From Acutalibacteraceae bacterium (GTDB taxonomy: Bacteria > Bacillota > Clostridia > Oscillospirales > Acutalibacteraceae): a DNA stretch of 28,488 bases. This document shows, in pieces, positions 1 through 26,628 of the stretch. The position numbers and the translations under genes are program-made. The DNA lies in assembly GCA_045604545.1 (NCBI GenBank), contig JAZUOG010000083.1, positions 1 through 28,488 on the forward strand, given 5' to 3'. Under the pieces are notes generated by a model. It was given only the letters and a program-made list of their open reading frames with translations, was not told the origin of the DNA and did not search any database. Each line of letters begins with the position of its first letter. Within the stretch, counting starts at the first letter, position 1.

Positions 1-272
1 TGAGAGGGCTTATACAGAACAGCCTCATTTAGTGGCGGCGTATACAGTAGAAGTGATCGGTCTGCTTAAATTCCCCACTCAATATGTTGATGGTTATCAC
101 AAGCCCTCTCCGTCATGGCTTACGCCATGCCACCTCTCCCAGAGGGAGAGGCAAGAAATACCTAAATACGCGGCTGGCAGACCGTATTACGCGTTCTACG
201 CGGAGGCTACGGAACAGAGGGCTATGCCCGCAAAAGAAAAAGCACCCGTTTTACGGGTGGATTCTTGTTGTT
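1..272 (+). repeat. Module A copy 1 (window-truncated at its 5' side): ~270-nt noncoding element ending in an intrinsic terminator; near-identical to 17520-17788
   Basis: ~97% identity to 17520-17788. Contains a long-range stem gagggctt(5-12)/aagccctc(107-114), an 8-bp hairpin cctctccc-aga-gggagagg (133-151), and a terminal hairpin cacccg-tttta-cgggtg (243-259) followed by a T-rich tail. The embedded 91-aa ORF has no RBS, and all 5 substitutions between the two copies are nonsynonymous. Confidence 0.6.
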
Positions 273-411
273 CCCGCAAATGCCGTGGCATCGCCCCGAC
301 CCCGTAGGGGACGGCCTCAACGGTCCGCCAATGTACCTGTCCCGATACGGACCACCGGGGACGGTGGTCCCTACGAATTGTATGGCACAATCCTGCGTCA
401 TCGCACCCAGC

Positions 412-487
412 CTGTCATTGCGAGGGCGCACAAGCGCCCGTGGCAATCTTCGCAGAAAGATTCTTGCGCTTCGCTCAGCATGACAAG
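412..487 (+). repeat. Module B copy 1: 76-nt imperfect palindrome (REPIN-like), second copy at 17225-17300
   Basis: Outer arms tgtcat.../...atgaca, an inner hairpin gggcgc-acaa-gcgccc, and a central aatctt-cgcaga-aagatt hairpin. ~90% identical to 17225-17300. Confidence 0.55.
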
Positions 488-514
488 GGACAACGACTCC
501 TCGGATTGCCCCTA

Positions 515-3699: not shown

Positions 3700-5115
3700 T
3701 CATTCCGCGGGGGCGCACGGTACCTCGGCGGGAGGCTCCGACACCACGGTATCCGTTGTCGGCTCAGATTTCTTGCCGAGGATCTCGGGCAACTGCATGC
3801 CTGCCAACGCAAACACATCAGCAAGAGGCGGCACGGATTGCATCATACCCGACAGAAATCCTGCCGTGGCATTCTTGCCGTCGCCGTTCTGACCGTTGTC
3901 CCAGACGGTAACCTTGTCGATCTTGATATTCTTGATCGCGTCCACCTGCACACGCATGAGATCTTCGAGCTTATCGGCGATGAGGAGCTTGAGCGCGGCA
4001 TCGGTATCGCCGCCCGCCGACTTGACGATCTCGGCAAAACCGGCGGCTTGTTTTCTGAGGATCTCTTCCATGCCGCGGGCTTCTGCCGCCATCTTGGCAT
4101 AGATCGCGTCTGCCTCGCCCTGTGCCTTGCGGCGGATCTGCTCGGCTTCTGCTTCTGCTTCGATTTCCAACTGACGCTTTTTGGCTTCTGTCTGCACGAT
4201 CACATCGGCTTCGAGGGTTGCCTGTTCACGGGAGCGACGAGCCTCTTCGGCGGCCTGCTCGGCGGCATAGGATTCCTCGAGGGCTTTTGCTGCCTGAATC
4301 TTCTCGGCGGCAGTGGCGATGCGCAGTGCCTCGGCTTCTTTTTCCTTGAGTGCCGCATCGGACATGGCGATCTTCATTTTAGCTTCGTTTTCGCCTTCGA
4401 TGGCAACGGACGAGGCATTTGCCACTTGAATGCGTTGGTCCATGTGGGCGTTGGCCTCACCGATGGAGCCGTCTCTTTCGCGTTCGGCAACGCTCTTTTT
4501 CGCATCGTTGATCGCTTTGGCGGCGGCTTCCTTACCCAACGCGGCGATGTAGCCCGATTCATCGCTGATATCGGTGACGTTCACGTTGATCAGACGCAGA
4601 CCGATCTTTTTCAGCTCGGTCTCCACGTTACTGCTGACCGCCGCGAGAAATTTATCACGATCGGTGTTGATCTCTTCGATGTCCATCGTGGCGATGATCA
4701 GGCGCAGCTGACCGAAGATGATATCCTTGGACAGCTCCTGAATTTCGGAAAGCTGCAGACCGAGGAGGCGCTCCGCCGCATTCTGCATCACGCCGGGTTC
4801 GGTGGAGATACCGACCGTGAAGCGGGACGGTACATCGATGCGGATGTTCTGACGGGACAGGGCATTTTTCAGATCGACCTGGATGGAGATGGGGGTCAGG
4901 TCCAAAAAGGCATACGATTGAAACACAGGGACAACAAATTCTGCACCGCCGTGAATACATTTGGCACTGCGGTTGGTGCCGTCCTTGTTTTTGCCAATCG
5001 AGCCGTAGACGACCATGATCTTGTCGGAGGGACACTTTTTATAGCGTGAGCACGCCCACACAATAAAAGAGACCAGAATCAAGACAAGAGCCAGTACCAA
5101 TGCGATCGTTTCCAT
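3700..5115 (-). CDS. floT: Flotillin-like SPFH/band-7 protein (FloT/YuaG-like)
   Basis: N-terminal TM followed by an SPFH domain, then a long Ala/Glu-rich coiled coil (EAEAEQIRRKAQGEADAIYAKMAAEARGMEE). RBS aaggagg upstream. Lies directly downstream of an NfeD gene. Confidence 0.85.
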   Translation of the reverse strand: METIALVLALVLILVSFIVWACSRYKKCPSDKIMVVYGSIGKNKDGTNRSAKCIHGGAEFVVPVFQSYAFLDLTPISIQVDLKNALSRQNIRIDVPSRFTVGISTEPGVMQNAAERLLGLQLSEIQELSKDIIFGQLRLIIATMDIEEINTDRDKFLAAVSSNVETELKKIGLRLINVNVTDISDESGYIAALGKEAAAKAINDAKKSVAERERDGSIGEANAHMDQRIQVANASSVAIEGENEAKMKIAMSDAALKEKEAEALRIATAAEKIQAAKALEESYAAEQAAEEARRSREQATLEADVIVQTEAKKRQLEIEAEAEAEQIRRKAQGEADAIYAKMAAEARGMEEILRKQAAGFAEIVKSAGGDTDAALKLLIADKLEDLMRVQVDAIKNIKIDKVTVWDNGQNGDGKNATAGFLSGMMQSVPPLADVFALAGMQLPEILGKKSEPTTDTVVSEPPAEVPCAPAE

Positions 5116-6618: not shown

Positions 6619-6692
6619 TGCGGAATCGTGTAAGGGTAGCACTACGGCCTCTGACTCCGTCTGTCTAGGTTCGAATCCTAGTTCCGCAGCCA
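6619..6692 (+). tRNA. tRNA-Gln (anticodon CTG) with encoded CCA
   Basis: Manual cloverleaf. Acceptor tgcggaa/ttccgca (7 bp). D-arm gtgt-aagggta-gcac. Anticodon stem acggc/tccgt with loop cTCTGac. T-arm ctagg-ttcgaat-cctag. Discriminator G, then CCA. Architecture matches Firmicutes tRNA-Gln. Confidence 0.85.
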
Positions 6693-6879
6693 AAAAACGG
6701 TCATCGCTTTTGCGATGGCCGTTTTTACTGTCTGCTTCTAGGATTCGAAAGGGGCGTTAAGAAAACGTCACGGTGTGACGTTTTTAGCCCCGTTGGAGAT
6801 GAAGAGACTGCCGATTTTACATGTACCAAAAGACGAGATCAAAACTACCTCCTTGATAAAACACCTAGTTCCGCAGCCA
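6693..6879 (+). repeat. Tandem unit U1 (187 bp): terminator, T-arm-like fragment, internal hairpin, then a 16-nt copy of the tRNA-Gln 3' end
   Basis: Ends in cctagttccgcagcca (6864-6879), identical to tRNA positions 6677-6692. The internal A-run/hairpin/T-run lies at 6762-6785. Confidence 0.7.
6698..6726. terminator. Bidirectional intrinsic terminator T1 after tRNA-Gln
   Basis: A-run, then stem cggtcatcgc/gcgatggccg with loop tttt, then ttttt. Confidence 0.8.
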
Positions 6880-7180
6880 AAAAACGGTCATCGCTTTTGC
6901 GATGGCCGTTTTTTCTGTCTGCTTCTAGGATTCGAAAGAACCGAGCAGCGAGCGCGTCCGGGGGACGAAACAGCGAGCGCGGAGGGCTGTGCAGCAACGC
7001 GATTTTGCAAGCCGCAACCCTTTGCGGCGCAGAAAAATCGAATGTTGCAAACGTTAGTTAAGAAAACGTGCCAGGGGCACGTTTTCAGCCCCGTTGGAGT
7101 TGAAGAGACTGCTGTTTTTGCTTGCACCAAAAGACGAGATCAAAACTACCTCCTTGATAAAACACCTAGTTCCGCAGCAA
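6880..7180 (+). repeat. Tandem unit U2 (301 bp): same architecture as U1 plus a 103-bp GC-rich insertion; ends in the tRNA 3' copy cctagttccgcagcAa
   Basis: Begins with a T1-like terminator at 6885-6914. The internal hairpin at 7063-7085 differs from U1 by two compensatory base-pair changes. The 3' tRNA fragment is at 7165-7180. Confidence 0.7.
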
Positions 7181-7216
7181 AAAAACGGTCATCGTTGTTG
7201 CGATGACCGTTTTCTT
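7179..7216. terminator. Bidirectional terminator T3 (third copy), also terminating htpX on the minus strand
   Basis: aaaaaaa, then stem cggtcatcg/cgatgaccg with loop ttgtt, then tttt. The htpX stop lies 13 nt away. Confidence 0.75.
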
Positions 7217-7228
7217 GCTGTATTCGGA

Positions 7229-8179
7229 TTATTGCATGGGGTTGTCGAAGGCGGGAGCGGGCTCGCTCCGGGTGGCCTCGACGGCGGCAACGGCACTCAT
7301 TTCCTGCAGACGGCGCACACGCTCGCCGTTGTCGGGGTGGCTGGATTCCAGCGCGGCGAACAGGCCGTCCTTGCCGTGACCGGTGCCGAAGCTGGCGAGC
7401 ACCTCGCTCAGCGAGGGACCGTAGCCGCATTGATGCGCATAGGCGTCCGCTTCGTATTCGTTCCGGCGGCTGGTGGCCATGACGAGCCACACGCCGAGCT
7501 GTGTCCATGCACGCATCATCAGCACCAGCAGGAAGTCAGCGACCACGCGGGAGATGCTGATGAAAATGGACGCAACGACACCGCCCCAGCCTCTGCTGAA
7601 TGCCGCGGTGCAGAACTCGCCGATCCACATCATGACATTCGCGACCACGCGAACAATGACGAAGATGGTTGTCACGATCAGGTTGCCCACCGCAACGACC
7701 AGCACGTTGTCGGTGTCCTTGTGAGCAAGGTGACCGAATTCGTGTGCCATGACGCCTTTGATCTGCTCGTCGGAATAGTTGAGCAGGCCGCGGGTCACGC
7801 AAAGCGTTTTGCGACCGGTTGCGAAGGCGTTGGGCTCTTCATCGTCGGACAGGAACATCTGAATCTTGTCGTTGAGCTCGGGGTTGAGCGTTTTGGCGTT
7901 GGCATACACCTCGTCAAACAGCGGTTGCAAACGGTTGAGCACCTCTTGATCGGTGATCTTTTTGCAGTGGCTCTGCAGACGCAGGATCCATTCGCCGATG
8001 GGCGACAGGGCGATGGCGAAGGACGCCGCATAGATCAGAAAGCCCCAAAGAGCACCCATCCAGTCGGTGTAGAAACCGCTGAACAGCGCGGTGATCAGCA
8101 GGATGTTGAGCACCATCCAGATGATCAGACCGGTGTTGCTCTTCTTGAACAGGTTTTTGAAGAAGTCGACAACGTACAT
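7229..8179 (-). CDS. htpX: Zinc metalloprotease HtpX (peptidase M48)
   Basis: HEFGH zinc motif, NAFATG motif and two N-terminal TM segments. Start at MYVVDFFKN with RBS agaggag (the ORF-track start 8224 lacks an RBS). Confidence 0.85.
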   Translation of the reverse strand: MYVVDFFKNLFKKSNTGLIIWMVLNILLITALFSGFYTDWMGALWGFLIYAASFAIALSPIGEWILRLQSHCKKITDQEVLNRLQPLFDEVYANAKTLNPELNDKIQMFLSDDEEPNAFATGRKTLCVTRGLLNYSDEQIKGVMAHEFGHLAHKDTDNVLVVAVGNLIVTTIFVIVRVVANVMMWIGEFCTAAFSRGWGGVVASIFISISRVVADFLLVLMMRAWTQLGVWLVMATSRRNEYEADAYAHQCGYGPSLSEVLASFGTGHGKDGLFAALESSHPDNGERVRRLQEMSAVAAVEATRSEPAPAFDNPMQ

Positions 8180-15833: not shown

Positions 15834-15861
15834 CGCCCGAGGAAACTCGGGCGGATTTTTG
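15834..15861 (+). terminator. Intrinsic terminator of the AT-rich cassette
   Basis: Stem cgcccgag/ctcgggcg with loop gaaa, then gattttt. Confidence 0.75.
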
Positions 15862-16051
15862 TCGTGTCTTTAGGTCAAATCCCCCGGTTATGCTGCGGGA
15901 GGAAGAAAGCCCCGGCGAGAAAAGCCTTCCCCTCAAGGGGATGCCCTGTTGCCTGTTTACAGGTTGCAGTGCACCACATGCGGTTGGCAAACCGTTCGGC
16001 GCGCATCTGCCGCAACAAAGCGGAACGGCAGGTGATTTTTGTCAAACCGTC

Positions 16052-16080
16052 TTGAAAGATGGGGGATGGTGTGATAAAAT
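16052..16080 (+). promoter_or_regulatory. Promoter TTGAAA-17-TAAAAT (TGn extended) for the two-gene unit 16136-17006
   Basis: Hexamers at 16052-16057 and 16075-16080. Confidence 0.5.
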
Positions 16081-16135
16081 AACCATATATGGAAATGACG
16101 CATTACCGCAATGTGAGAAAACAGGGGGTAAGAGC

Positions 16136-16570
16136 ATGAAAACAACCCATATCGAGGCGAACTATGGCGCGTATCCGATCACAACGGCGGCGTTTGACGG
16201 CGAAAATGAGCTGTGTGTGGTGATTGAGCCGCATGAATATGAGATGCGTTTTAACAAAGAGTATGTGTCCCGTTTTTCATTCCCGGGGTGTACGGTGAAG
16301 GCGACACCGTCGGGTGCTGTGTATTTCTTTGACAGCAACGGCGAACTGTCGGCGGCGTGTGACGGTACGGCGGCAATGACATGTCCCATGGTGCAGGTAA
16401 AGGTGACGGCGAAGGACGTGACGGTGACGTTCGGGCAGGAGTGCGAGGTCGACACCTATCCTCACTGTGACGGCGAGCATGATCGCTATGTGATACGCTT
16501 TTGCGCCGACCGCGGTGTGGTGTGGCATCTTGAAGATAATGCCGTCGAGATTGAAGAAGAGTTTGAATAA
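16136..16570 (+). CDS. Hypothetical protein (144 aa, Cys-rich, no recognisable family)
   Basis: RBS agggggtaag with ATG at 16136. The ORF-track N-terminal extension has no RBS. Confidence 0.6.
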   Translation: MKTTHIEANYGAYPITTAAFDGENELCVVIEPHEYEMRFNKEYVSRFSFPGCTVKATPSGAVYFFDSNGELSAACDGTAAMTCPMVQVKVTAKDVTVTFGQECEVDTYPHCDGEHDRYVIRFCADRGVVWHLEDNAVEIEEEFE

Positions 16571-16592
16571 ACGATAATAAAGGAGAATGAAC

Positions 16593-17006
16593 ATGGAACT
16601 GTCAAATGAAAAGGCACTTGCCGTGGAATGGCGTAAACTGAGAACCCTGCTCACCACCAACAACAAGCTGGAATACGAGTTGTTTAAAAAGGTGTTCGAG
16701 GAGACCAGAGACCTGTTGTCGTCCTGCGCGACGGCAACCGCCATCGACAAAAGCTACATGAACGTGATCGTGGAAGCCTACAAGTTCAGCGGCACTGACG
16801 GTGCTTACAAGGACGCAAAGCCGCAGGCGGCGCTCATCATGACCGAGCGTATGCTGCAGCATTATGTCCTTGACAGCCATGTCGGCGACGTGCGCAGCGG
16901 TGTGTATGTGTATGTGCTGGAAGCGAAGGAAGAGATCTACATTGACTTTGAAAATGTGGACACTTCCATCGCCGTTCTCGGCCGCGCTCTGGAGAGACGG
17001 TATTAA
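16593..17006 (+). CDS. Hypothetical protein (137 aa)
   Basis: RBS aggag 16581-16585, with the ATG at 16593 preferred by spacing. 22 nt after the upstream gene, so likely co-transcribed. Confidence 0.6.
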   Translation: MELSNEKALAVEWRKLRTLLTTNNKLEYELFKKVFEETRDLLSSCATATAIDKSYMNVIVEAYKFSGTDGAYKDAKPQAALIMTERMLQHYVLDSHVGDVRSGVYVYVLEAKEEIYIDFENVDTSIAVLGRALERRY

Positions 17007-17224
17007 GGGCAGGGATAAGGGCAGGGATATCCGCGACATCTGTCGCGGGTGATATTCGCACTACGTGCGAGTGATATTTGCCCCGCGGGCAAGTGAAATG
17101 TTGCTGTCGCAACGTGAAGGAGTCCGCTTCGCGGACGGATCGCCCTCTCAGTCTCGCTGACGCTCGACAGCTCTCCCATGGGGAGAGCCAAGGCGACCGC
17201 CTGTCGCGAGACCACCACCCAACT
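17007..17224 (+). repeat. Hairpin array: direct repeat gggcagggata x2, then four ~22-nt units (GTGAWAT + variable GC hairpin), then a nested multi-stem domain
   Basis: GTGA at 17049, 17071, 17093 and 17114. The hairpins are cgcac-tac-gtgcg, gcccc-g-cgggc, gttgc-tgtc-gcaac and gtccgc-ttc-gcggac. An outer stem gtctcgc...gcgagac encloses gctctccc-atg-gggagagc (17170-17188). Confidence 0.6.
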
Positions 17225-17300
17225 CTGTCATTGCGAGGGCGCGTAAGCGCCCGTGGCAATCTTCGCAGAAAGATTCTTCGCTTACGCTCAGAATGACAAG
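17225..17300 (+). repeat. Module B copy 2 (the GNRA loop gtaa replaces acaa)
   Basis: Aligns to 412-487. The differences are confined to the loop and a short segment of the 3' arm. Confidence 0.55.
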
Positions 17301-17519
17301 GGGGAGGCGATCAGCCTCTCACAAATTCTGCACCAATATGGGGGCAACCGTTGCCTCCCTTGCCTAAAGGGAGGTGGCACGAGCGTATGCGAGTGACGGA
17401 GGGATTCTTTTTGTGTACCGAAAACCACGCGTTAAACGCGTGGTTCAGTGAAGGCTATGCCGATGAGTAAAAAACACGGCTCTCCCTTTGGGAGAGCTGT
17501 CAAAACCGTAGGTTTTGAC

Positions 17520-17788
17520 TGAGAGGGCTTATACAGAACAGCCTCATTTAGTGGCGGCGTATACAGTAGAAGTGATCGGTCTGCTTAAATTCCCCACTCA
17601 ATGTGTTGATGGTTATCACAAGCCCTCTCCGTCATGGCCTACGCCATGCCACCTCTCCCAGAGGGAGAGGCAAGAAATAACTAAATACGCGGCTGGCAGA
17701 CTGTATTACGCGTTCTACGCGGAGGCTACGGAACAGAGGGCTATGCCCGCAAAAGAAAAACCACCCGTTTTACGGGTGGTTTCTTTTT
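17520..17788 (+). repeat. Module A copy 2, ending in a bidirectional intrinsic terminator
   Basis: ~97% identical to 1-272. Terminator ccacccg-ttttac-cgggtgg followed by tttcttttt (17761-17788). Preceded by the 9-bp hairpin gtcaaaacc-gta-ggttttgac. No convincing sigma-A promoter lies immediately upstream. Confidence 0.6.
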
Positions 17789-17802
17789 GCGTATAGGGGA
17801 GA

Positions 17803-18207
17803 TTAATAGCCGTGGTCGGCGTGACGCCAGGTTTCGCCGGGGTTTCTGACAAGGATCCATTTCCAACCCGTATAGGTGAAATTCGGGTTGAGCGAGCCGT
17901 CGCCGCCCGATTCACCGACAGCAAAGGTGGAGACAAGCACCATGACCTCCTGTGCCTGATGACGCTCGGCAAATTCCGTGTAACCGGAAAGTGCATCATC
18001 GCCGATATAGGCGAGATCAATGAGTGTGCAACCGTCGAATTCCTTGCTGAAATAGTCCATGGTCACCCGAACAGCAGAGGAGATATCCTCTTTGCTGTAT
18101 ACGGCAGAGGGACGCTCAATGACTGTGACATCGCTGACATCTCCGCCGCAGGCGGACAGGCACAGCAGGACGGCTGTTATTAATACATATGCAAGAAAAC
18201 GCTTCAT
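17803..18207 (-). CDS. Small lipoprotein
   Basis: MKRFLAYVLITAVLLCLSACGG with lipobox LSAC. RBS aggagag. Confidence 0.65.
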   Translation of the reverse strand: MKRFLAYVLITAVLLCLSACGGDVSDVTVIERPSAVYSKEDISSAVRVTMDYFSKEFDGCTLIDLAYIGDDALSGYTEFAERHQAQEVMVLVSTFAVGESGGDGSLNPNFTYTGWKWILVRNPGETWRHADHGY

Positions 18208-18229
18208 AACTTCACTCTCCTGAAAATCA

Positions 18230-18622
18230 TTATTCAATGCGCACCGTCACATCGGTTGCCTTGACATACACCACCTTGTCGGTGTCTGTGGGGTTTGTCA
18301 TCAGCAATCCGATTTTGTACCACGCACCGTTTTCGACGGTCAATTCTGTCGGAAGACCGGAGCCGAAATAGACGGGGCCGTGTGTGATGTCTTGGTTACC
18401 CTCAGCCGATCGCAACACCAGCGCGGTTTCCACAGCGCCCTCTCCCTCGGAAAGGGTGATCGTGCGTCTGAGCGGCGATATCTCCTCATCGGAGTAGCAA
18501 TAGGTGGCTTCGGTCGTACCCGCCGGCACAACAATGGCGATCGTGTAGGCGGTGTTTCGACCGCAACCGCATAACGACACACCGCACAGCAGAACGGCGA
18601 ACAGGAATACCATTCGTTTCAT
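18230..18622 (-). CDS. Small lipoprotein
   Basis: MKRMVFLFAVLLCGVSLCGCG lipobox. RBS gaggtga. Confidence 0.65.
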   Translation of the reverse strand: MKRMVFLFAVLLCGVSLCGCGRNTAYTIAIVVPAGTTEATYCYSDEEISPLRRTITLSEGEGAVETALVLRSAEGNQDITHGPVYFGSGLPTELTVENGAWYKIGLLMTNPTDTDKVVYVKATDVTVRIE

Positions 18623-18637
18623 CGATCGATCACCTCG

Positions 18638-19516
18638 TTATCGGATATAGTAGCTGATGGAGGACAGCATGTCTGTGCGAACGTTTTCGGTGTCGAGGAC
18701 GCTGTCAACGGTGAACCAGACATCGCTGTCGGTGTAGGCACCGTGCGGGAAATCATAGCAAAACTGAATGGTGGAGATGGTGGTTTGTCCGTTGTAAACA
18801 CACATGCTGTGGGTGATCTTTTCGGGAGCGCCCAGTGTCTGTATGATCTCATCAAGGGTGGACAATCCGTTCAGTCCGCCGAACAGCGACACATCCGTGC
18901 GCGGTGAGCGATCATCGTCCATGACGGCGTTGTCGCTTCTGTAGTACAGCGTCAGCTGCTGGATCAGGCAGTCTCCCAATGCCGCGGAATGTTCGCCGTC
19001 GGACGGCAGAACATAGGTCATCAGCTCCGCTCCGTTTGCGTGGCGGAAGGTCACGCCGTCACCGCGGCAGGTGCGGCTCATCGGGACGTTGCTGACGGCG
19101 GATCCCGAAATGTTGACGATCGACCAGTCGTCCGCCATCATAAACTCCTCCACCGTGACGGGGAGTGTATAGGCCTTTTCCAGAATGACGGCTTCGTGAT
19201 TCGTCTTGTTGTCGGCGAGCGCTTGCGGTGTTTTCAAGGTATAGACATAGTCTGTCTGGGTGTCGCTCCACACCTTCTCTTCCATCGAATAAAGCGTCAG
19301 ATCGAGGCGTGCGGACATCTCCCGTTCAAAGGATTTATGGTCGGTGATGCGTCCGATGGGGCGGGTGAGAACCGGCTCTTCGGAATTGGTGGTAACGGCC
19401 GTTTGGGTGTCGGTTGCGGGAGACTGTTCATCGCTCGACTGACCGCAGGCGCACAGCCCGAACAGCAACGCGATCACCGTAAGGATCGCGATCAAGGTGT
19501 GTTTCGAAGATGTCAT
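18638..19516 (-). CDS. Lipoprotein (292 aa)
   Basis: Start at MTSSKHTLIAILTVIALLFGLCACGQ with RBS aaggagg. The longer ORF-track N-terminus has no RBS. Confidence 0.65.
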   Translation of the reverse strand: MTSSKHTLIAILTVIALLFGLCACGQSSDEQSPATDTQTAVTTNSEEPVLTRPIGRITDHKSFEREMSARLDLTLYSMEEKVWSDTQTDYVYTLKTPQALADNKTNHEAVILEKAYTLPVTVEEFMMADDWSIVNISGSAVSNVPMSRTCRGDGVTFRHANGAELMTYVLPSDGEHSAALGDCLIQQLTLYYRSDNAVMDDDRSPRTDVSLFGGLNGLSTLDEIIQTLGAPEKITHSMCVYNGQTTISTIQFCYDFPHGAYTDSDVWFTVDSVLDTENVRTDMLSSISYYIR

Positions 19517-19533
19517 GGTAAGAAAACGCCTCC

Positions 19534-19905
19534 TTATGAGTCTTTCCGAAAGCATCGTGTCAGCAGGGAAGATAGCAGTGACAGCACCGTTGTGACGGTT
19601 GCGAAGGACAGCCCGGGTACAGAAAACGGGTGTTCCCCGAAAACGCAGGCGGTCCACAGCCATATTGCCGAAAACCAGATGATGTGCGGCAACAGGGCGT
19701 TTTTGAGCATGACGCGGGTGAGAATGCCGTGAAGGATCGCGCAAAGCGGTAAGCCGAACATCAGGATAAAATCGGTGACGGTAAAGCGCACCATGCTGTC
19801 ATCATCGGAAACAACAACGGTATCGAACTCGGTGGTTGTGACCGACAGCACCAGAAGCATCAGTCCGATGATGCCGATGAGCAACAGATACGGTTTCAGT
19901 TTCAT
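19534..19905 (-). CDS. Small integral membrane protein
   Basis: Start at MKLKPYLLL with RBS aggagg. 3-4 hydrophobic helices. Confidence 0.55.
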   Translation of the reverse strand: MKLKPYLLLIGIIGLMLLVLSVTTTEFDTVVVSDDDSMVRFTVTDFILMFGLPLCAILHGILTRVMLKNALLPHIIWFSAIWLWTACVFGEHPFSVPGLSFATVTTVLSLLSSLLTRCFRKDS

Positions 19906-19918
19906 GGCGGCCTCCTGT

Positions 19919-20473
19919 TTACGGCTCTTCATACAACCGTGACGGGCGGTAGTGAACGCCGGGGTTTCGCAAAGTCAGAGCGGTGATGAACTGTGTTTGT
20001 TCATCGGCTTCTTCGATGATATACAGAGAACAGAGTCCTTCATCGCTTGGCGCTTTGTCAACACCGAGATAATAGATGTCGGAAAAGTGCACACTGAAGC
20101 GAGCTTCACCGCAGTATACATCAACAGAGACCTCATTACGACAGCGTGTGACAAAGTTTTCGGATGAGGAAGTTTCGCTGGAATGGTCATTATCCCAGCG
20201 AAGTTCACCATCGGGAAAATCCGCCAGCAACACGGCAATGTCGTCTTGTAAGGTGGGTACTTCTTGTACGGCAGAGGCGGAAAACAGAGAAAGAAGTGTT
20301 TCGCTGTCGTTGTTTTCGAGAGCCGTGACGATGGTGTTGATGCAGTCGTTTTGTCTGTTATAGCTCTGTGTCATGTAGTCGCCGCGTGTGAAGATTTCTT
20401 CTTCGGCAACCCCGCAAGCGGAAAGGCACAGTAGCGCGCTACACAGCAGTAAGACGGCAAGAAAACGTTTCAT
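19919..20473 (-). CDS. Lipoprotein
   Basis: MKRFLAVLLLCSALLCLSACG. RBS aggagg. Confidence 0.65.
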   Translation of the reverse strand: MKRFLAVLLLCSALLCLSACGVAEEEIFTRGDYMTQSYNRQNDCINTIVTALENNDSETLLSLFSASAVQEVPTLQDDIAVLLADFPDGELRWDNDHSSETSSSENFVTRCRNEVSVDVYCGEARFSVHFSDIYYLGVDKAPSDEGLCSLYIIEEADEQTQFITALTLRNPGVHYRPSRLYEEP

Positions 20474-21033
20474 GATGACCTCCTGTCTGCATGACGTATG
20501 CGGTGTATGAGTGTGTCGGCTTCTTGTTCGGAAGCGACAGCGGCAATGATGATCGAGCGGGGCTTTCGGTAGGTGTTGTGCGCGCCGTCAACGGTATCTG
20601 CCGCGTATCTGACGGCGATAAACAGCGTGCCGTCAATGCGACGCCAAAGAGCGGTTTGGGATAAACGGTCGATCGAGATCTTTTCGATATCCTCATAGCG
20701 AACGGCGATTTCTCTGCGAAATCCATAGCCGTTTTCGGTGATGATCATACGGTCGTCATTCAATTCCGTGCGGATCGACCGTCCGCCTGCGAGCGGTATG
20801 GTGACGAGCCCGAGAAGCAGTGCAAATGCGGTGATGATCAGCGCTGTTGCGCAAAGTCCATGTCCTATCAGTGCCGACCGATCGCCGTCCGTTGTTGAAA
20901 CAAAGGACAGCAACAGCATCCCCGTCAAAGCAATCGCCAATATGATCAGATAGCCGATGACCAGGGTGAATGCGCTGTATTTCCGAAGGTGCTTTCGTTG
21001 TGCGCGATCGCTCGCATCGTACAGGTAGATCAT
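20470..21033 (-). CDS. Membrane protein with two TM helices and a C-terminal soluble domain (bPH-like?)
   Basis: RBS aggaagg. Overlaps the upstream gene's stop by 4 nt. Confidence 0.5.
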   Translation of the reverse strand: MIYLYDASDRAQRKHLRKYSAFTLVIGYLIILAIALTGMLLLSFVSTTDGDRSALIGHGLCATALIITAFALLLGLVTIPLAGGRSIRTELNDDRMIITENGYGFRREIAVRYEDIEKISIDRLSQTALWRRIDGTLFIAVRYAADTVDGAHNTYRKPRSIIIAAVASEQEADTLIHRIRHADRRSS

Positions 21034-21048
21034 GGAATCACCTTCCTA

Positions 21049-21558
21049 TCATTTTTCCCAGTTTTCGACAATGTCGATGCGGCGGCGAACTTCATCAAGC
21101 ATGGCGGGAAACGGCTCCGTTTGCGGCGGTTTCCCCATCACAAGGCACGCGATACAGTCGATGAGATCGATGCCCCACAGAACCAGCGCGCCGTAAAACA
21201 GCCACGAACCGGCATTGACACTCAATTCGACGAAGATGTCCAGCAAGAGCAGGACAACACCGAGCAACAGCACGAGGAGATTGGGGATCCATCGGGTACG
21301 GTCTTTGACCTCGCAGATGCGGATGTAGGTTTGTCCGTCCTGCTCGGTTACCTCTCCGCGAAGAATGAGGGAGACGGAGTCGGTCGATTCCACACGCAGT
21401 CGCCCTTTCGCCGAGCAGGTCACGGTGACCGCGGCGGCGGAAGCATTCTGGGGGTCATACACCGCGTCCAGCTGTCGCAGACGGAGAATGGTATCATTTT
21501 TGGACGCGTTTTTCACGGGAATGCTGTGTTCCTTTAACACGTTTCTGAAAAGCGCCAT
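21049..21558 (-). CDS. Hypothetical membrane protein
   Basis: RBS aaaggag. N-terminal soluble region followed by two TM helices. Confidence 0.5.
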   Translation of the reverse strand: MALFRNVLKEHSIPVKNASKNDTILRLRQLDAVYDPQNASAAAVTVTCSAKGRLRVESTDSVSLILRGEVTEQDGQTYIRICEVKDRTRWIPNLLVLLLGVVLLLLDIFVELSVNAGSWLFYGALVLWGIDLIDCIACLVMGKPPQTEPFPAMLDEVRRRIDIVENWEK

Positions 21559-21575
21559 ACATACCGCTCCTTTGC

Positions 21576-22211
21576 TTATGCTGTGATTGGTGTGGCTTCG
21601 GCACCGAAAAGGGAGAGGGATTCCTCAATAGCTTCGGCGGATTCGGCACGGAACTCGTCGTACAGAAGGAAGTGACAGTTTGCCGTGACGCTGTTGTCAT
21701 CGCCGCGGGTAAACACCACCATGACGGGTGTGGCATTGTCGAAGGTGTAGATGTAGACGGTGTTGTCTGTCATGTCATCGCTGACGAAGGTTTTGCGTGT
21801 CGCACACACGGAGGAGATCGCCATGGCGTTCAGACCGGCTTTGGCGTTGATCCATGACGGAACGGATTCATACGCCCGCGCGATCATATAGGCTTCGTAT
21901 TGCTCGGGAACATCGTTCGGAAGCGTAATGCTCAGTTGTGTGAACAGCATCTCTTTTTGCAATGTCACCTCGTACACCGCTTTAGGGGTGGTGTGATCCT
22001 CGCCGGCGAGTGCGGCGAGCGGCTCTTTATACTCCTCTGTTGCGGAGGAGAAGAATGCTTCGGGATAAAGCGCCGTCTGCTTCATGTAGGGGATGAGATT
22101 CAGACCGCGCTGGTAAAGCGACACGGAGGGCGCAGCACTTTCGCAGGCGGAGAACAGCATGACGCTTGCAAAAACAGCAATGGCTGTGAGTATGGCAATG
22201 AGACGTTTCAT
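21576..22211 (-). CDS. Lipoprotein (212 aa)
   Basis: MKRLIAILTAIAVFASVMLFSAC. RBS aaggag. The start region and upstream junction are duplicated at 22541-22605. Confidence 0.65.
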   Translation of the reverse strand: MKRLIAILTAIAVFASVMLFSACESAAPSVSLYQRGLNLIPYMKQTALYPEAFFSSATEEYKEPLAALAGEDHTTPKAVYEVTLQKEMLFTQLSITLPNDVPEQYEAYMIARAYESVPSWINAKAGLNAMAISSVCATRKTFVSDDMTDNTVYIYTFDNATPVMVVFTRGDDNSVTANCHFLLYDEFRAESAEAIEESLSLFGAEATPITA

Positions 22212-22237
22212 AATCAAGAACTCCTTTTGTGGTGGGT

Positions 22238-22573
22238 TCAGCCGCCGCGGCCGGGGCCGAAGGCGGCGCTGACGGCAACACCGTCTTGGTCGAAATGGAC
22301 GCTCAGTCCGTAAGGATAACCCGAGAAATCGAATTCTTCGTACGACCAGAGGCGACAGCTTGATGCCATGTAGCTGTCCTCGTGGTCAAAATAGGCACAG
22401 TTGGGCTTGCCGAGCCTTCCGAAAATATCGTTTTTGGTGAGTGTGTCGCCATCGTTAATATCCTCGGCGATATCCTCCATTGCGCGGTAGTCGGCGGATT
22501 GCAACAGCGATTCGACACTGCAACCGCTGAGTAACAGCAAGGCGGCCGTGAGTATGGCGATGAGACGTTTCAT
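22238..22573 (-). CDS. Small lipoprotein, tandem paralog 1
   Basis: MKRLIAILTAALLLLSGCS. C-terminal FDFSGYPYGLSVHFDQDG...GPGRGG is shared with 22600-22944. Confidence 0.65.
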   Translation of the reverse strand: MKRLIAILTAALLLLSGCSVESLLQSADYRAMEDIAEDINDGDTLTKNDIFGRLGKPNCAYFDHEDSYMASSCRLWSYEEFDFSGYPYGLSVHFDQDGVAVSAAFGPGRGG

Positions 22574-22599
22574 AATCCAAAACTCCTTTTGTGGTGGGT

Positions 22600-22944
22600 T
22601 CAGCCGCCGGGGGCGGGTTCAAATTCGGCGGCAACGGTCAGCCCGTGTTCATTGAAATGAACAAGCAGGCGGTAGGGAGAGCCCGAAAAATCAAACACTT
22701 CATAGCGCCAGTTCCATGAGGTTGCTTCCATATGGTCACCGCTGCCGTCGGCATAATCGGGTGCACCGATTTTCTGTGTGACCTCAAATTTGGTCAATGA
22801 TGCACCGTTTTCAATCGTTTGAGCAAAAGCCTTCAGTTCGCGGTAACGCGAAGATTGAAGCAGGGAATCACCGTCACAGCCGCCGAGGAACACCGAAAGA
22901 ACGAGTGCTGTCATGCACAAAACGGAAAGGATACGGATCGTCAT
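22600..22944 (-). CDS. Small lipoprotein, tandem paralog 2
   Basis: Start MTIRILSVLCMTALVLSVFLGGC with RBS aggagag. C-terminal FDFSGSPYRLLVHFNEHG...PAPGG. Confidence 0.6.
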   Translation of the reverse strand: MTIRILSVLCMTALVLSVFLGGCDGDSLLQSSRYRELKAFAQTIENGASLTKFEVTQKIGAPDYADGSGDHMEATSWNWRYEVFDFSGSPYRLLVHFNEHGLTVAAEFEPAPGG

Positions 22945-22948
22945 ACTG

Positions 22949-23248
22949 TCACTCTCCTGAGGTTTCTTGTTGGGAATGGCATACGGCAAAGCCGACAATG
23001 CCGAGCACCAGCGCGCCGCCACCGATGAGGGTGAGCGGCAGATAGTGCGCAAGGTACAGCTCCTTCGTCAGAGTGGAGGTGAGGTACTCAGCGGTCGGGC
23101 CGTCCGCACCGCCGATGATGGCAACGGGGGTTTCGGGAATGTTGCTGACCGCGGAGCGGGAGGAGACAAACGGAATAAGAATGCTGGCGGCGATCATCAG
23201 AACACCGACAACCAGAATGATGACAAATAGCGATTTTTTGGAAATCAT
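22949..23248 (-). CDS. Small membrane protein (2 TM)
   Basis: Start MISKKSLFVIILVVGVLMIA with RBS aaaggag. Confidence 0.5.
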   Translation of the reverse strand: MISKKSLFVIILVVGVLMIAASILIPFVSSRSAVSNIPETPVAIIGGADGPTAEYLTSTLTKELYLAHYLPLTLIGGGALVLGIVGFAVCHSQQETSGE

Positions 23249-26163: not shown

Positions 26164-26628
26164 ATGAACACATTGCCGAATCGAAAGCATAATCGCCTGC
26201 AAGGGTACGATTATCGAACAAACGGTGTCTATCATGTGACGATATGCACAAAAAGAAACGCACCTGTGCTGTGCCGCGTCGTAGGGCGGGCAGACCTCTG
26301 CCCGCCGCAGGTGATGTTGACAAAGCTTGGGACGATTATTAAACGATATATTATGTCTATCGAAGGCGCCTATGATGATATCACTGTTGTGAAGTATGTC
26401 ATCATGCCGGATCATATTCACCTGTTGTTGGTGTTGAACGGAGCGCAGGGGTCTGCGCTCCCTACGGTCAGTAAAGTAGTCAAAGCACTGAAGGTTATGG
26501 TGCGCAAGGAGACCGGATATTCGTTTTTTCAAAGTTCTTTTTACGACCACATTATCCGCTGTCAACAGGACTATGACGCAACATGGGAATATATCGACAA
26601 CAATCCGCTCAAATATAAGGGGAGGTGA
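26164..26628 (+). CDS. IS200-like Y1 HUH transposase of the REP-associated tyrosine transposase (RAYT) type
   Basis: 154 aa. GYDYRTNGVYHVTICTKRN (beta1), HUH motif MPDHIHLLL, and C-terminal SFYDHIIR...DYDATWEYIDNNPLKYK, matching the RAYT catalytic-Tyr helix. Its stop overlaps the uvrC RBS. Confidence 0.8.
   Translation: MNTLPNRKHNRLQGYDYRTNGVYHVTICTKRNAPVLCRVVGRADLCPPQVMLTKLGTIIKRYIMSIEGAYDDITVVKYVIMPDHIHLLLVLNGAQGSALPTVSKVVKALKVMVRKETGYSFFQSSFYDHIIRCQQDYDATWEYIDNNPLKYKGR

Follow-up and report, generated by a model that had tools for sequence, protein, structure and literature searches.

A hairpin-saturated intergenic tract in an Acutalibacteraceae contig is probably a mosaic of short hairpin repeats that opens with a Gut-1-type array

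The BOX elements of Streptococcus pneumoniae are modular intergenic repeats of a Firmicute, assembled from boxA, boxB and boxC, with stable folds and variable module combinations. Hairpins of repetitive extragenic palindromes (REPs) shield upstream messenger RNA (mRNA) from 3' exonucleases, as at malE-malF, and terminating ribosomes can reportedly be stalled by a REP that lies no more than about 15 nt from a stop codon, an effect attributed to Liang, Rudd and Deutscher in 2015. REPs lie within 20 nt of the 3' ends of open reading frames (ORFs), often supply the stop codon and form head-to-head (HH) dimers, and in Neisseria they build mosaic intergenic regions (PMC3733652). The CGTC superfamily of REPs is defined by a CGTC tag, an A-T-first stem of 8-9 bp, a loop of 4-5 nt and a CCA tail, and the REP survey that describes it has no Firmicutes entries (Di Nocera et al. 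2013, PMC3733652). Gut-1 (RF01706), reported from human gut reads only, was proposed by its discoverers to be a probable stand-alone noncoding RNA (ncRNA) (PMC2864571, Weinberg et al. 2010). Here, we describe an intergenic tract at positions 17007-17795 of a contig from an Acutalibacteraceae bacterium (JAZUOG010000083.1). We refer to the DNA analysed, one whole NCBI contig of 28,488 bp, as the window. A first-pass annotation had read the tract mainly as a large structured ncRNA resembling OLE, GOLLD or ROOL. In our assessment it is probably a mosaic of at least four families of short hairpin repeats, similar to the bacterial interspersed mosaic elements (BIMEs) of E. coli and the Neisseria intergenic mosaic elements (NIMEs), that accumulated and recombined at a synteny breakpoint between convergent genes.

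The tract lies between the TAA (17004-17006) of a gene for a 137-aa protein and the stop of a convergent lipoprotein gene at 17803. Its modules are multicopy, mixed in orientation and rearranging, and the hairpin array with which it begins is anchored at the stop codon. Much of what the first-pass annotation had described is borne out. There is no credible coding sequence, the ORFs being short and without a Pfam match; the count of at least 15 perfect stems agrees with the ~16 that we found (stems of 5-11 bp, loops of 1-6 nt); and the recurring gctctccc stem family is seen as CTCTCCC-NNN-GGGAGAG four times in the window, against 0.01 expected. A GNRA tetraloop is seen where it had been placed in module B (GTAA), no promoter-like site occurs within the tract, and a pattern scan recovered the predicted bidirectional terminator at 17752-17788, whose inverted repeat is 17 nt. 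Between the stop codon and 17752 the + strand contains no terminator. Hairpins are concentrated here, with 14 of the window's 37 perfect hairpins (stem of at least 7 bp) falling in the tract. One 93-aa ORF with a TTG start (17515-17796) was considered as coding and rejected, as it has no family match and runs across repeat units and the terminator.

We defined one repeat family, X, from four tract copies and extended it with nhmmer. Its consensus, aCCCTCTC(A/C)GTC-[hairpin 1]-G(A/C)CA(G/C)CTCYCCC-NNN-GGGRGAG(C/G)C, describes a double hairpin. X1 (17138-17194, + strand; E=5e-10, alignment A2) is a ~55-nt unit of the 'TCGC' subtype (CCCTCTCAGTC...GACAGCTCTCCC-ATG-GGGAGAGCC). Around its second hairpin, the pairs GTCTCGC/GCGAGAC and CGACAG/CTGTCG form a long-range stem (17151-17212, +); the GTCTCGC (17151-17157) and GCGAGAC (17206-17212) arms, already noticed in the first pass, are kept in the orthologous locus L001 at 1820-1875. 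X4 (17351-17410, - strand; E=9e-10, A2) is a diverged reverse unit, and a hairpin adjoining it (17340-17358, GGGGGCAAC/GTTGCCTCC) recurs as the same GCAACCGTTGCC hairpin beside an X(-) unit at L001 1664-1680. Also in reverse orientation is X2 (17475-17534, -; E=4.5e-14), with matches of 80-88% in faecal contigs, compared with 82-90% for X1. X3 (17616-17676, +; E=1.7e-12, A2) belongs to the CCGTC subtype and has a CGTC tag, an A-T-first stem and a GCCA tail, followed by CCTCTCCC-AGA-GGGAGAGG. A perfect 11-bp palindromic hairpin (AACCACGCGTT-A-AACGCGTGGTT, 17423-17445) stands between X4 and X2 and has a terminator-like score on the - strand.

Two larger modules are each present twice in the window. 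Module B (17225-17302, +) is a compound hairpin of two inverted GTCATT-type units, with half b1 on the + strand at 17227-17262 and half b2 on the - strand at 17272-17297; it matches window 412-489 at 90% and has a further copy at L001 1881-1962. Module A (17520-17789, +) is a 270-nt block that holds X3 and the terminator (17752-17788; stem 17758-17782 with 11 pairs, standing between an A run and a T run, and predicted to act in both directions), and it is duplicated at window 1-270 with 97% identity. At the contig start A precedes B, the opposite of their order in the tract. The first base of the contig falls inside an X unit, the equivalent of X2; thus copy 1 of A begins within a repeat unit, and its left boundary is an assembly break rather than a module edge. 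Beside these copies, the region at window 278-500, upstream of a CotH-dockerin gene, has an inverted pair of GTAG-type hairpins (~296-335 and 349-374) and then the second module B, the same grammar as a Vescimonas tract at L166 2300-3110.

For about 85% of the tract, a match was found elsewhere in a small fetched sample. Plasmid and phage collections returned module matches of ~50 nt only and never the whole tract, and in the phage collection blastn found only three X pieces of ~50 nt, in 20 human faecal contigs. These faecal "Bacteriophage sp." records are unverified and unannotated. The window has five X units, and another ~25 occur on both strands of six human faecal contigs, which include at least four head-to-head pairs 36-42 nt apart. 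In alignment A2 (25 sequences), 80.9% of cells are paired against 72.5% in shuffles; double changes were observed in 9 of 16 pairs, and none of 500 shuffles reached the covariation score. An 861-kb replicon of Vescimonas fastidiosa has the b1 half of B at 17 sites. There, an intergenic tract of ~850 nt consists of more than 10 GTAG+hairpin units, with one B and one reversed X after them. A separate stretch of 50 kb from this replicon was annotated; although 84% of it is coding, 14 of 15 GTAG-hairpins and both b1 units were intergenic. An exact 32-mer of module A was absent from the genome-contig collection, and look-ups by exact protein sequence of the two flanking genes and of P0001 gave no match.

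The 137-aa gene belongs to a two-gene cassette (145-aa and 137-aa proteins, no Pfam match) that, together with its array, has a different neighbourhood in each of three organisms (window 15856-17140, L001 140-1622, L407 66-1232) and that the closest strain lacks at this junction; it is possibly mobile or accessory. Among 5.8 billion proteins, homologs of the 137-aa protein formed only three clusters. In L001 (86% aa identity) a Gut-1 array made of other hairpins comes after the gene, then a hairpin with X(-), X(+) with the long-range stem and B, the locus's own terminator and an ABC-transporter operon; the hairpin-X(-) pair precedes the X(+)-stem-B group, the reverse of the tract, and block A is absent. 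In L407 (74% aa identity) GTAG-hairpins like those at window 278-375 follow the array, parts of module A lie upstream of the orthologous cassette, and sequence there equal to window 17451-17487 is fused to 17663-17698. Thus, the search for homologs in relatives yielded no colinear homolog and only re-ordered modules: L001 and L407 share the array and shuffled module subsets with the tract. The differences also have a common form. Two inverted X-like units, delimited by copies of the hairpin, make up a 183-nt insertion in L001; a difference of 175 nt relative to L407 has one end in hairpin 2 of X2 and the other in hairpin 2 of X3; and the edges of indels and fusions between loci fall in repeat hairpins. 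On the lipoprotein side, L163, a strain of the same species (96% nucleotide identity), is homologous up to 17777, beyond which it has a different terminator, then HPr/TrmD/RimM, and lacks the tract at the junction; L164 (75% aa identity) has the same HPr synteny and also lacks the tract there. Because homology to L163 stops at 17777 and L163 has another terminator hairpin, the terminator at 17752-17788 is, on this sequence comparison, assigned to module A and not to the ancestral 3' end of the lipoprotein gene.

These comparisons bear directly on the proposal of the first-pass annotation that the tract is one gene for a large structured ncRNA of a new OLE/GOLLD/ROOL-like class. Its size, its stem density, the GNRA loop in B and a folding z-score near -10 all speak for such an RNA. 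The minimum free energy of the + strand is -365 kcal/mol, against -271 +/- 10 for shuffles (z -9.6). However, the - strand folds equally well (z -10.3), and stability that is nearly equal on both strands, as palindromic DNA gives, does not point to one transcribed strand. (Wobble-pair asymmetry was dropped as a strand test; it was uninformative because the stems are nearly all Watson-Crick.) We ran cmscan against all 4227 Rfam families, applying gathering thresholds to the whole window and E<=1 to 16950-17850. The former returned tRNA-Gln and Gut-1 (RF01706, 17047-17125) only, the latter added only sub-threshold matches at chance level, and in neither was OLE, GOLLD, ROOL, HEARO or raiA returned. 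The statement that the tract matches no known family therefore needs dividing: it fails for 17047-17125, which scores above the Gut-1 gathering score, and it stands for X and B, for which Rfam has no family. The modules are dispersed repeats that recur singly and on both strands, relatives hold shuffled subsets of them, and strain L163 lacks the tract. Non-colinear orthologs together with indels whose edges lie in hairpins exclude a single conserved 0.8-kb RNA and fit a recombining repeat mosaic at a synteny breakpoint. The large-ncRNA reading is already largely refuted, and we regard it as scarcely credible; the alternative wording in the same annotation, a novel composite element, has proved apt, as the tract is a composite of repeat families.

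Repeats of this kind also raise the question of an assembly artefact, in which a misjoin through the 97%-identical block A or through X repeats would have merged two shorter intergenic regions. Such an error would account for block A standing both at the first base of the contig and at 17520-17789, for a contig start inside an X unit, and for the synteny with L163 and L164 breaking exactly at 17777-17790. However, the L163 breakpoint is at the far end of block A, beside the lipoprotein gene and not within the repeat, and long repeat tails follow the cassette in L001 and L407 anyway. A misjoin thus appears improbable, and the modules are real whatever the join.

Among described systems, the tract is closest in form to the BIMEs and NIMEs (REP and dRS3 clusters). 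As in these, a long extragenic stretch combines several short palindromic families in alternating orientations: the order along the tract is X(+), B, X(-), X(-), X(+), and every copy of X, B and the array in the window lies between genes. The position between convergent or co-directional genes near ORF 3' ends, the variability between strains and the role as a site of rearrangement are likewise shared (PMC3733652). The tract differs from them in its host, a gut Clostridia lineage with no families of this sort on record, in its units (X, B and the Gut-1 array) and in having no IHF-type spacer motif. X in turn resembles the CGTC-tagged REPs (Di Nocera et al. 2013, PMC3733652). Hairpin 1 of many copies has CGTC, an A-T-first stem, a 3-5 nt loop and a GCCA tail, and the head-to-head dimers have spacers of ~36-42 nt. 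However, about half of the X copies have CAGTC instead of CCGTC, and CGTC REPs have no equivalent of the second conserved hairpin present in every X, SCTCYCCC-NNN-GGGRGAGS. With BOX, by description only, the tract shares modular intergenic repeats of stable structure in variable combinations, whereas the fixed A-B(n)-C grammar of BOX has no counterpart in the tract beyond the Gut-1 array.

The inverted hairpin-repeat doublets also recall the REPIN/RAYT system of REP doublets and REP-associated tyrosine transposases (RAYTs). A single RAYT-like HUH/Y1 transposase gene is present in the contig (26158-26628, + strand), 8.4 kb from the tract and upstream of uvrC, and is a candidate mobiliser. Its product has GYDY...VTICT, MPDHIHLLL and FYDHIIR motifs (HUH plus a catalytic Tyr) and weak matches to TnpA and TnpAREP structures. 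It scored 54.2 bits with NCBIfam REP_Tyr_transpos (E=1.4e-14), below the cut-off of 80, and 21.3 with Pfam Y1_Tnp, against a cut-off of 23. GTAG+hairpin units, a further point of likeness, occur outside the tract, at window 349-374, 26281-26306 and 26440-26465, in the Vescimonas sequence L166 and in L407. Unlike in REPIN/RAYT systems, the tract repeats have no GTAG, and neither X, B nor Gut-1 flanks the RAYT-like gene, which has GTAG-hairpins inside its own ORF instead. The two sites within this ORF (26281-26306 and 26440-26465) are in frame, one per strand; in the L164 ortholog of the gene (3940-4410) the first site is different yet still self-complementary. It seems that this Firmicutes lineage, from which none had been described, has REP/REPIN-like systems that include a RAYT-like gene together with GTAG- and CGTC-like hairpins; a literature search on REP or RAYT in Clostridia found nothing specific.

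The first part of the tract is a Gut-1-type array. The TAA of the upstream hypothetical gene (16593-17006, + strand; supported by the ORF list and ribosome-binding-site spacing, no Pfam match) abuts a duplicated leader, GGGCAGGGATAA / GGGCAGGGATAT (17007-17030, +), and five hairpins follow (17031-17136, +): H1 17031-17048, H2 17056-17070, H3 17078-17092, H4 17100-17113 and H5 17122-17136. The linkers between them are, in order, GTGATAT, GTGATAT, GTGAAAT and GTGAAGGA. The RF01706 match at 17047-17125 (+) is full-length and reaches 53.3 bits (E=4.7e-8), above the gathering score of 50, which makes the array a Gut-1 member by score. Like Gut-1 RNA, this segment has three hairpins joined by GUGAAAU linkers; unlike it, the unit here exceeds the 77-nt model, with its leader, five hairpins and a conserved end of GTGAAGGA and H5. 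Five bacterial arrays (the window, two in L001, L011 and L018) have one common architecture: (TAA)GGGCAG-TGAAAT, four GTGAAAT-joined hairpins, GTGAAGGA and a fifth hairpin GTCSGC-TTY-GCSGAC. The leader opens the arrays of L001 (twice), L018 and L407 and is degenerate in L011. Compensatory changes were seen in 17 of 40 predicted pairs of the five-hairpin alignment A1, and the same hairpin "words" occupy different slots in different arrays. Model R1, built on the array unit, gave 122-154 bits on bacterial arrays (123.7 for the window array) and 20-50 bits on arrays of viral contigs. Read from the sequence, the 22-nt period brings the TGA of the linker into all three reading frames over three units. 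A CRISPR array, recognisable by direct repeats of 23-55 nt with unique non-palindromic spacers between them, was rejected as an explanation: what is conserved is a 7-nt linker that recurs every 22 nt, and the intervening "spacers" are palindromic.

A scan of genome contigs for the array end gave 23 loci, among which L011, L018 and L022 are the only true arrays and the others are chance matches. None of the six loci from a metagenome scan for the H5 hairpin was a Gut-1 array; all were another palindromic element with the same H5. In these loci (L031-L036; for example, L031 85-407 and L033 1030-1352), an exact H5 and linker (GTGAAGGAGTCCGCTTCGCGGAC) lie at the centre of a palindromic intergenic element. 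Four tandem heptamers (TTGACAG or GTGTGGA) and a second hairpin make up this element together with the heptamers in inverted form, and it too has no family in Rfam.

Every co-oriented array starts 0-4 nt after the stop of its upstream gene, or else the first linker itself provides the stop as its TGA. Among the genes that precede arrays are the 137-aa gene (3 orthologs), an ABC ATPase, a Mem_trans transporter, FakA and others, and, in phages, a portal protein, a scaffold protein and ORFs beside the capsid gene. In L011 and L018 an intrinsic terminator follows ~15 nt after H5. Gut-1 arrays were found not only in human gut samples but also in metagenome-assembled genomes (MAGs) from goat caecum. 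Co-oriented arrays thus all begin at the stop of an upstream ORF, and because Gut-1 is multicopy, sits at the stop codon and has a terminator after it, it is not the free-standing small RNA that its discoverers proposed. Our observations place Gut-1, as a multicopy element, in 3' untranslated regions (UTRs) or intercistronic spacers and so revise the presumed biology of the family. The array also has a history apart from that of its gene. Between the window and L407 the array is 98.5% identical and the adjacent gene 74%, and between the window and L001 the figures are 71% and 81%. As the identity of the array is decoupled from that of the gene, the array has been replaced or homogenised rather than diverging with its gene.

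Stop-codon anchoring is relevant to a further explanation, that the tract acts as RNA. The first pass had suggested a long structured 3' extension of the upstream transcript, which is plausible. A functional 3' UTR would go further: transcribed with the cassette, its modules would be reusable RNA domains for protein binding or for the control of decay or translation, and their repetition would reflect selection for the same RNA function after many genes. Consistent with this, the + strand is free of terminators from the stop codon to 17752 and has no internal promoter, Gut-1 arrays are always co-oriented and start at the stop, even where that stop belongs to a phage portal or scaffold gene, the hairpins stay intact through covariation, and the array is far better conserved than the gene (98.5% versus 74%). 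However, X units lie on both strands in the tract and as inverted pairs elsewhere, module order differs between orthologous loci, folds are equally stable on both strands, and a strain of the same species lacks the tract at the junction. On these grounds we consider a functional structured 3' UTR unlikely as the explanation of the whole tract.

Arrays also occur in viral contigs. A first viral scan gave at least 120 loci, mostly chance matches, of which a palindrome filter retained 10 contigs; two further scans (at least 120 loci each) had no arrays among the matches listed. In L139 (760-960), L150 (634-1034) and L116 (409-591), and also in L110, L115, L119 and L134, a half-array of GTGAAAT and hairpins is followed by a half-array of hairpins and ATTTCAC; these half-arrays adjoin a terminator and tRNA genes, often within ~1 kb of contig ends. 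The linker pair in L102 is GTGATAT / ATATCAC, which looks like covariation. Judging from such pairs, complementary linkers of phage half-arrays could zip into a ladder of four-way junctions; in the tract, no partner half-array able to pair with the GTGAWAT linkers was found. Other phage-like arrays (L102 1490-1609, 2611-2741 and 4273-4393; L159 1735-1852 and 12146-12258) lie directly 3' of portal, scaffold and capsid-neighbour ORFs, with the stop codon in or at the first linker, and L102 looks like a run of three successive ORF-plus-array units.

We also weighed a role at the level of DNA, with arrays as attC-like boundaries of mobile cassettes or as recombination or replication sites and with cassette and array moving together. 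The two-gene cassette and its array recur in three contexts (the window, L001 and L407), three successive ORF-plus-array units are found in phage contig L102, and phage arrays form inverted half-arrays near contig ends and tRNA genes. Such a role is very improbable, in our view: no integrase or recombinase adjoins the arrays, which also follow core housekeeping genes (FakA, ABC ATPase), and no precise cassette excision or empty site was observed. A further idea, possible though on balance doubtful, is that Gut-1-type arrays are an unrecognised class of stop-codon-anchored, head-to-tail hairpin arrays common to gut Clostridia and their phages, each with different hairpins strung on a fixed 7-nt linker. 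They would be copied or homogenised between genes and would serve, at gene 3' ends or in the spaces between genes, as modular stabilisers or as regulators coupled to translation termination. If so, the tract would be one site where such an array seeded a larger repeat mosaic.

Several points weigh against a mosaic of REP-like repeats. The visible source DNA (28 kb) contains only five X, two B and one array. X stem 1 has 5-6 bp against the 8-9 bp of CGTC REPs, and X, B and Gut-1 are without the GTAG tag of the GTAG superfamily. Given the lack of GTAG, the shorter X stem and the extra second hairpin, membership of the published REP superfamilies is not established. The RAYT-like protein falls under both curated cut-offs and nothing ties it to X, B or Gut-1, its expected partners being GTAG-hairpins. 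Selection on an RNA function, rather than selfish spread, could account equally well for co-orientation, for stop anchoring and for arrays that are nearly identical between the window and L407. Finally, the junction at 17777-17790 could be an assembly misjoin through duplicated block A.

We nevertheless favour the mosaic, and under it the tract might form and act as follows. The repeats would spread and homogenise as DNA, like REPs and REPINs, with a hairpin-recognising HUH transposase as the likely agent and a contribution from recombination between copies. A cassette transcript would run to the terminator at 17788 and carry stacked stable hairpins, which may act as 3'-exonuclease barriers and as terminators for convergent transcripts, and the stop-anchored Gut-1 array may be a stabiliser or a translation-coupled element at the 3' end of its gene. 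By analogy, REP-like repeats probably act here as 3' mRNA barriers or terminators.

The tract is ordinary in kind, while its repeat families are barely described in gut Clostridia. If our interpretation holds, hairpin-saturated, ORF-free tracts of this size in Oscillospirales-type genomes would be repeat mosaics and not giant ncRNAs, and scans for large RNAs in gut Clostridia should mask these families first. Gut-1, formerly known from metagenomic reads only, gains a genomic context in MAGs and phage late operons, which makes its function testable (mRNA stability, termination, ribosome rescue). Furthermore, the repeats mark synteny breaks and contig ends, which bears on the quality of MAG assemblies.

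Two other repeated regions were noted in the window. A tRNA-Gln gene (6619-6692) is followed by three copies of its 3' end with the terminator hairpin (6677-6751, 6864-6938 and 7165-7239), which lie in tandem units of ~190-300 nt across 6619-7239 and may be integration remnants or pseudo-tRNA repeats. Beyond the tract, 17803-23052 (- strand) is a run of small paralogous lipoprotein-like genes, some with DUF5104, that is syntenic with L163 and L164 and contains an internal DNA repeat of 74% identity (22182-22369 versus 22544-22731).

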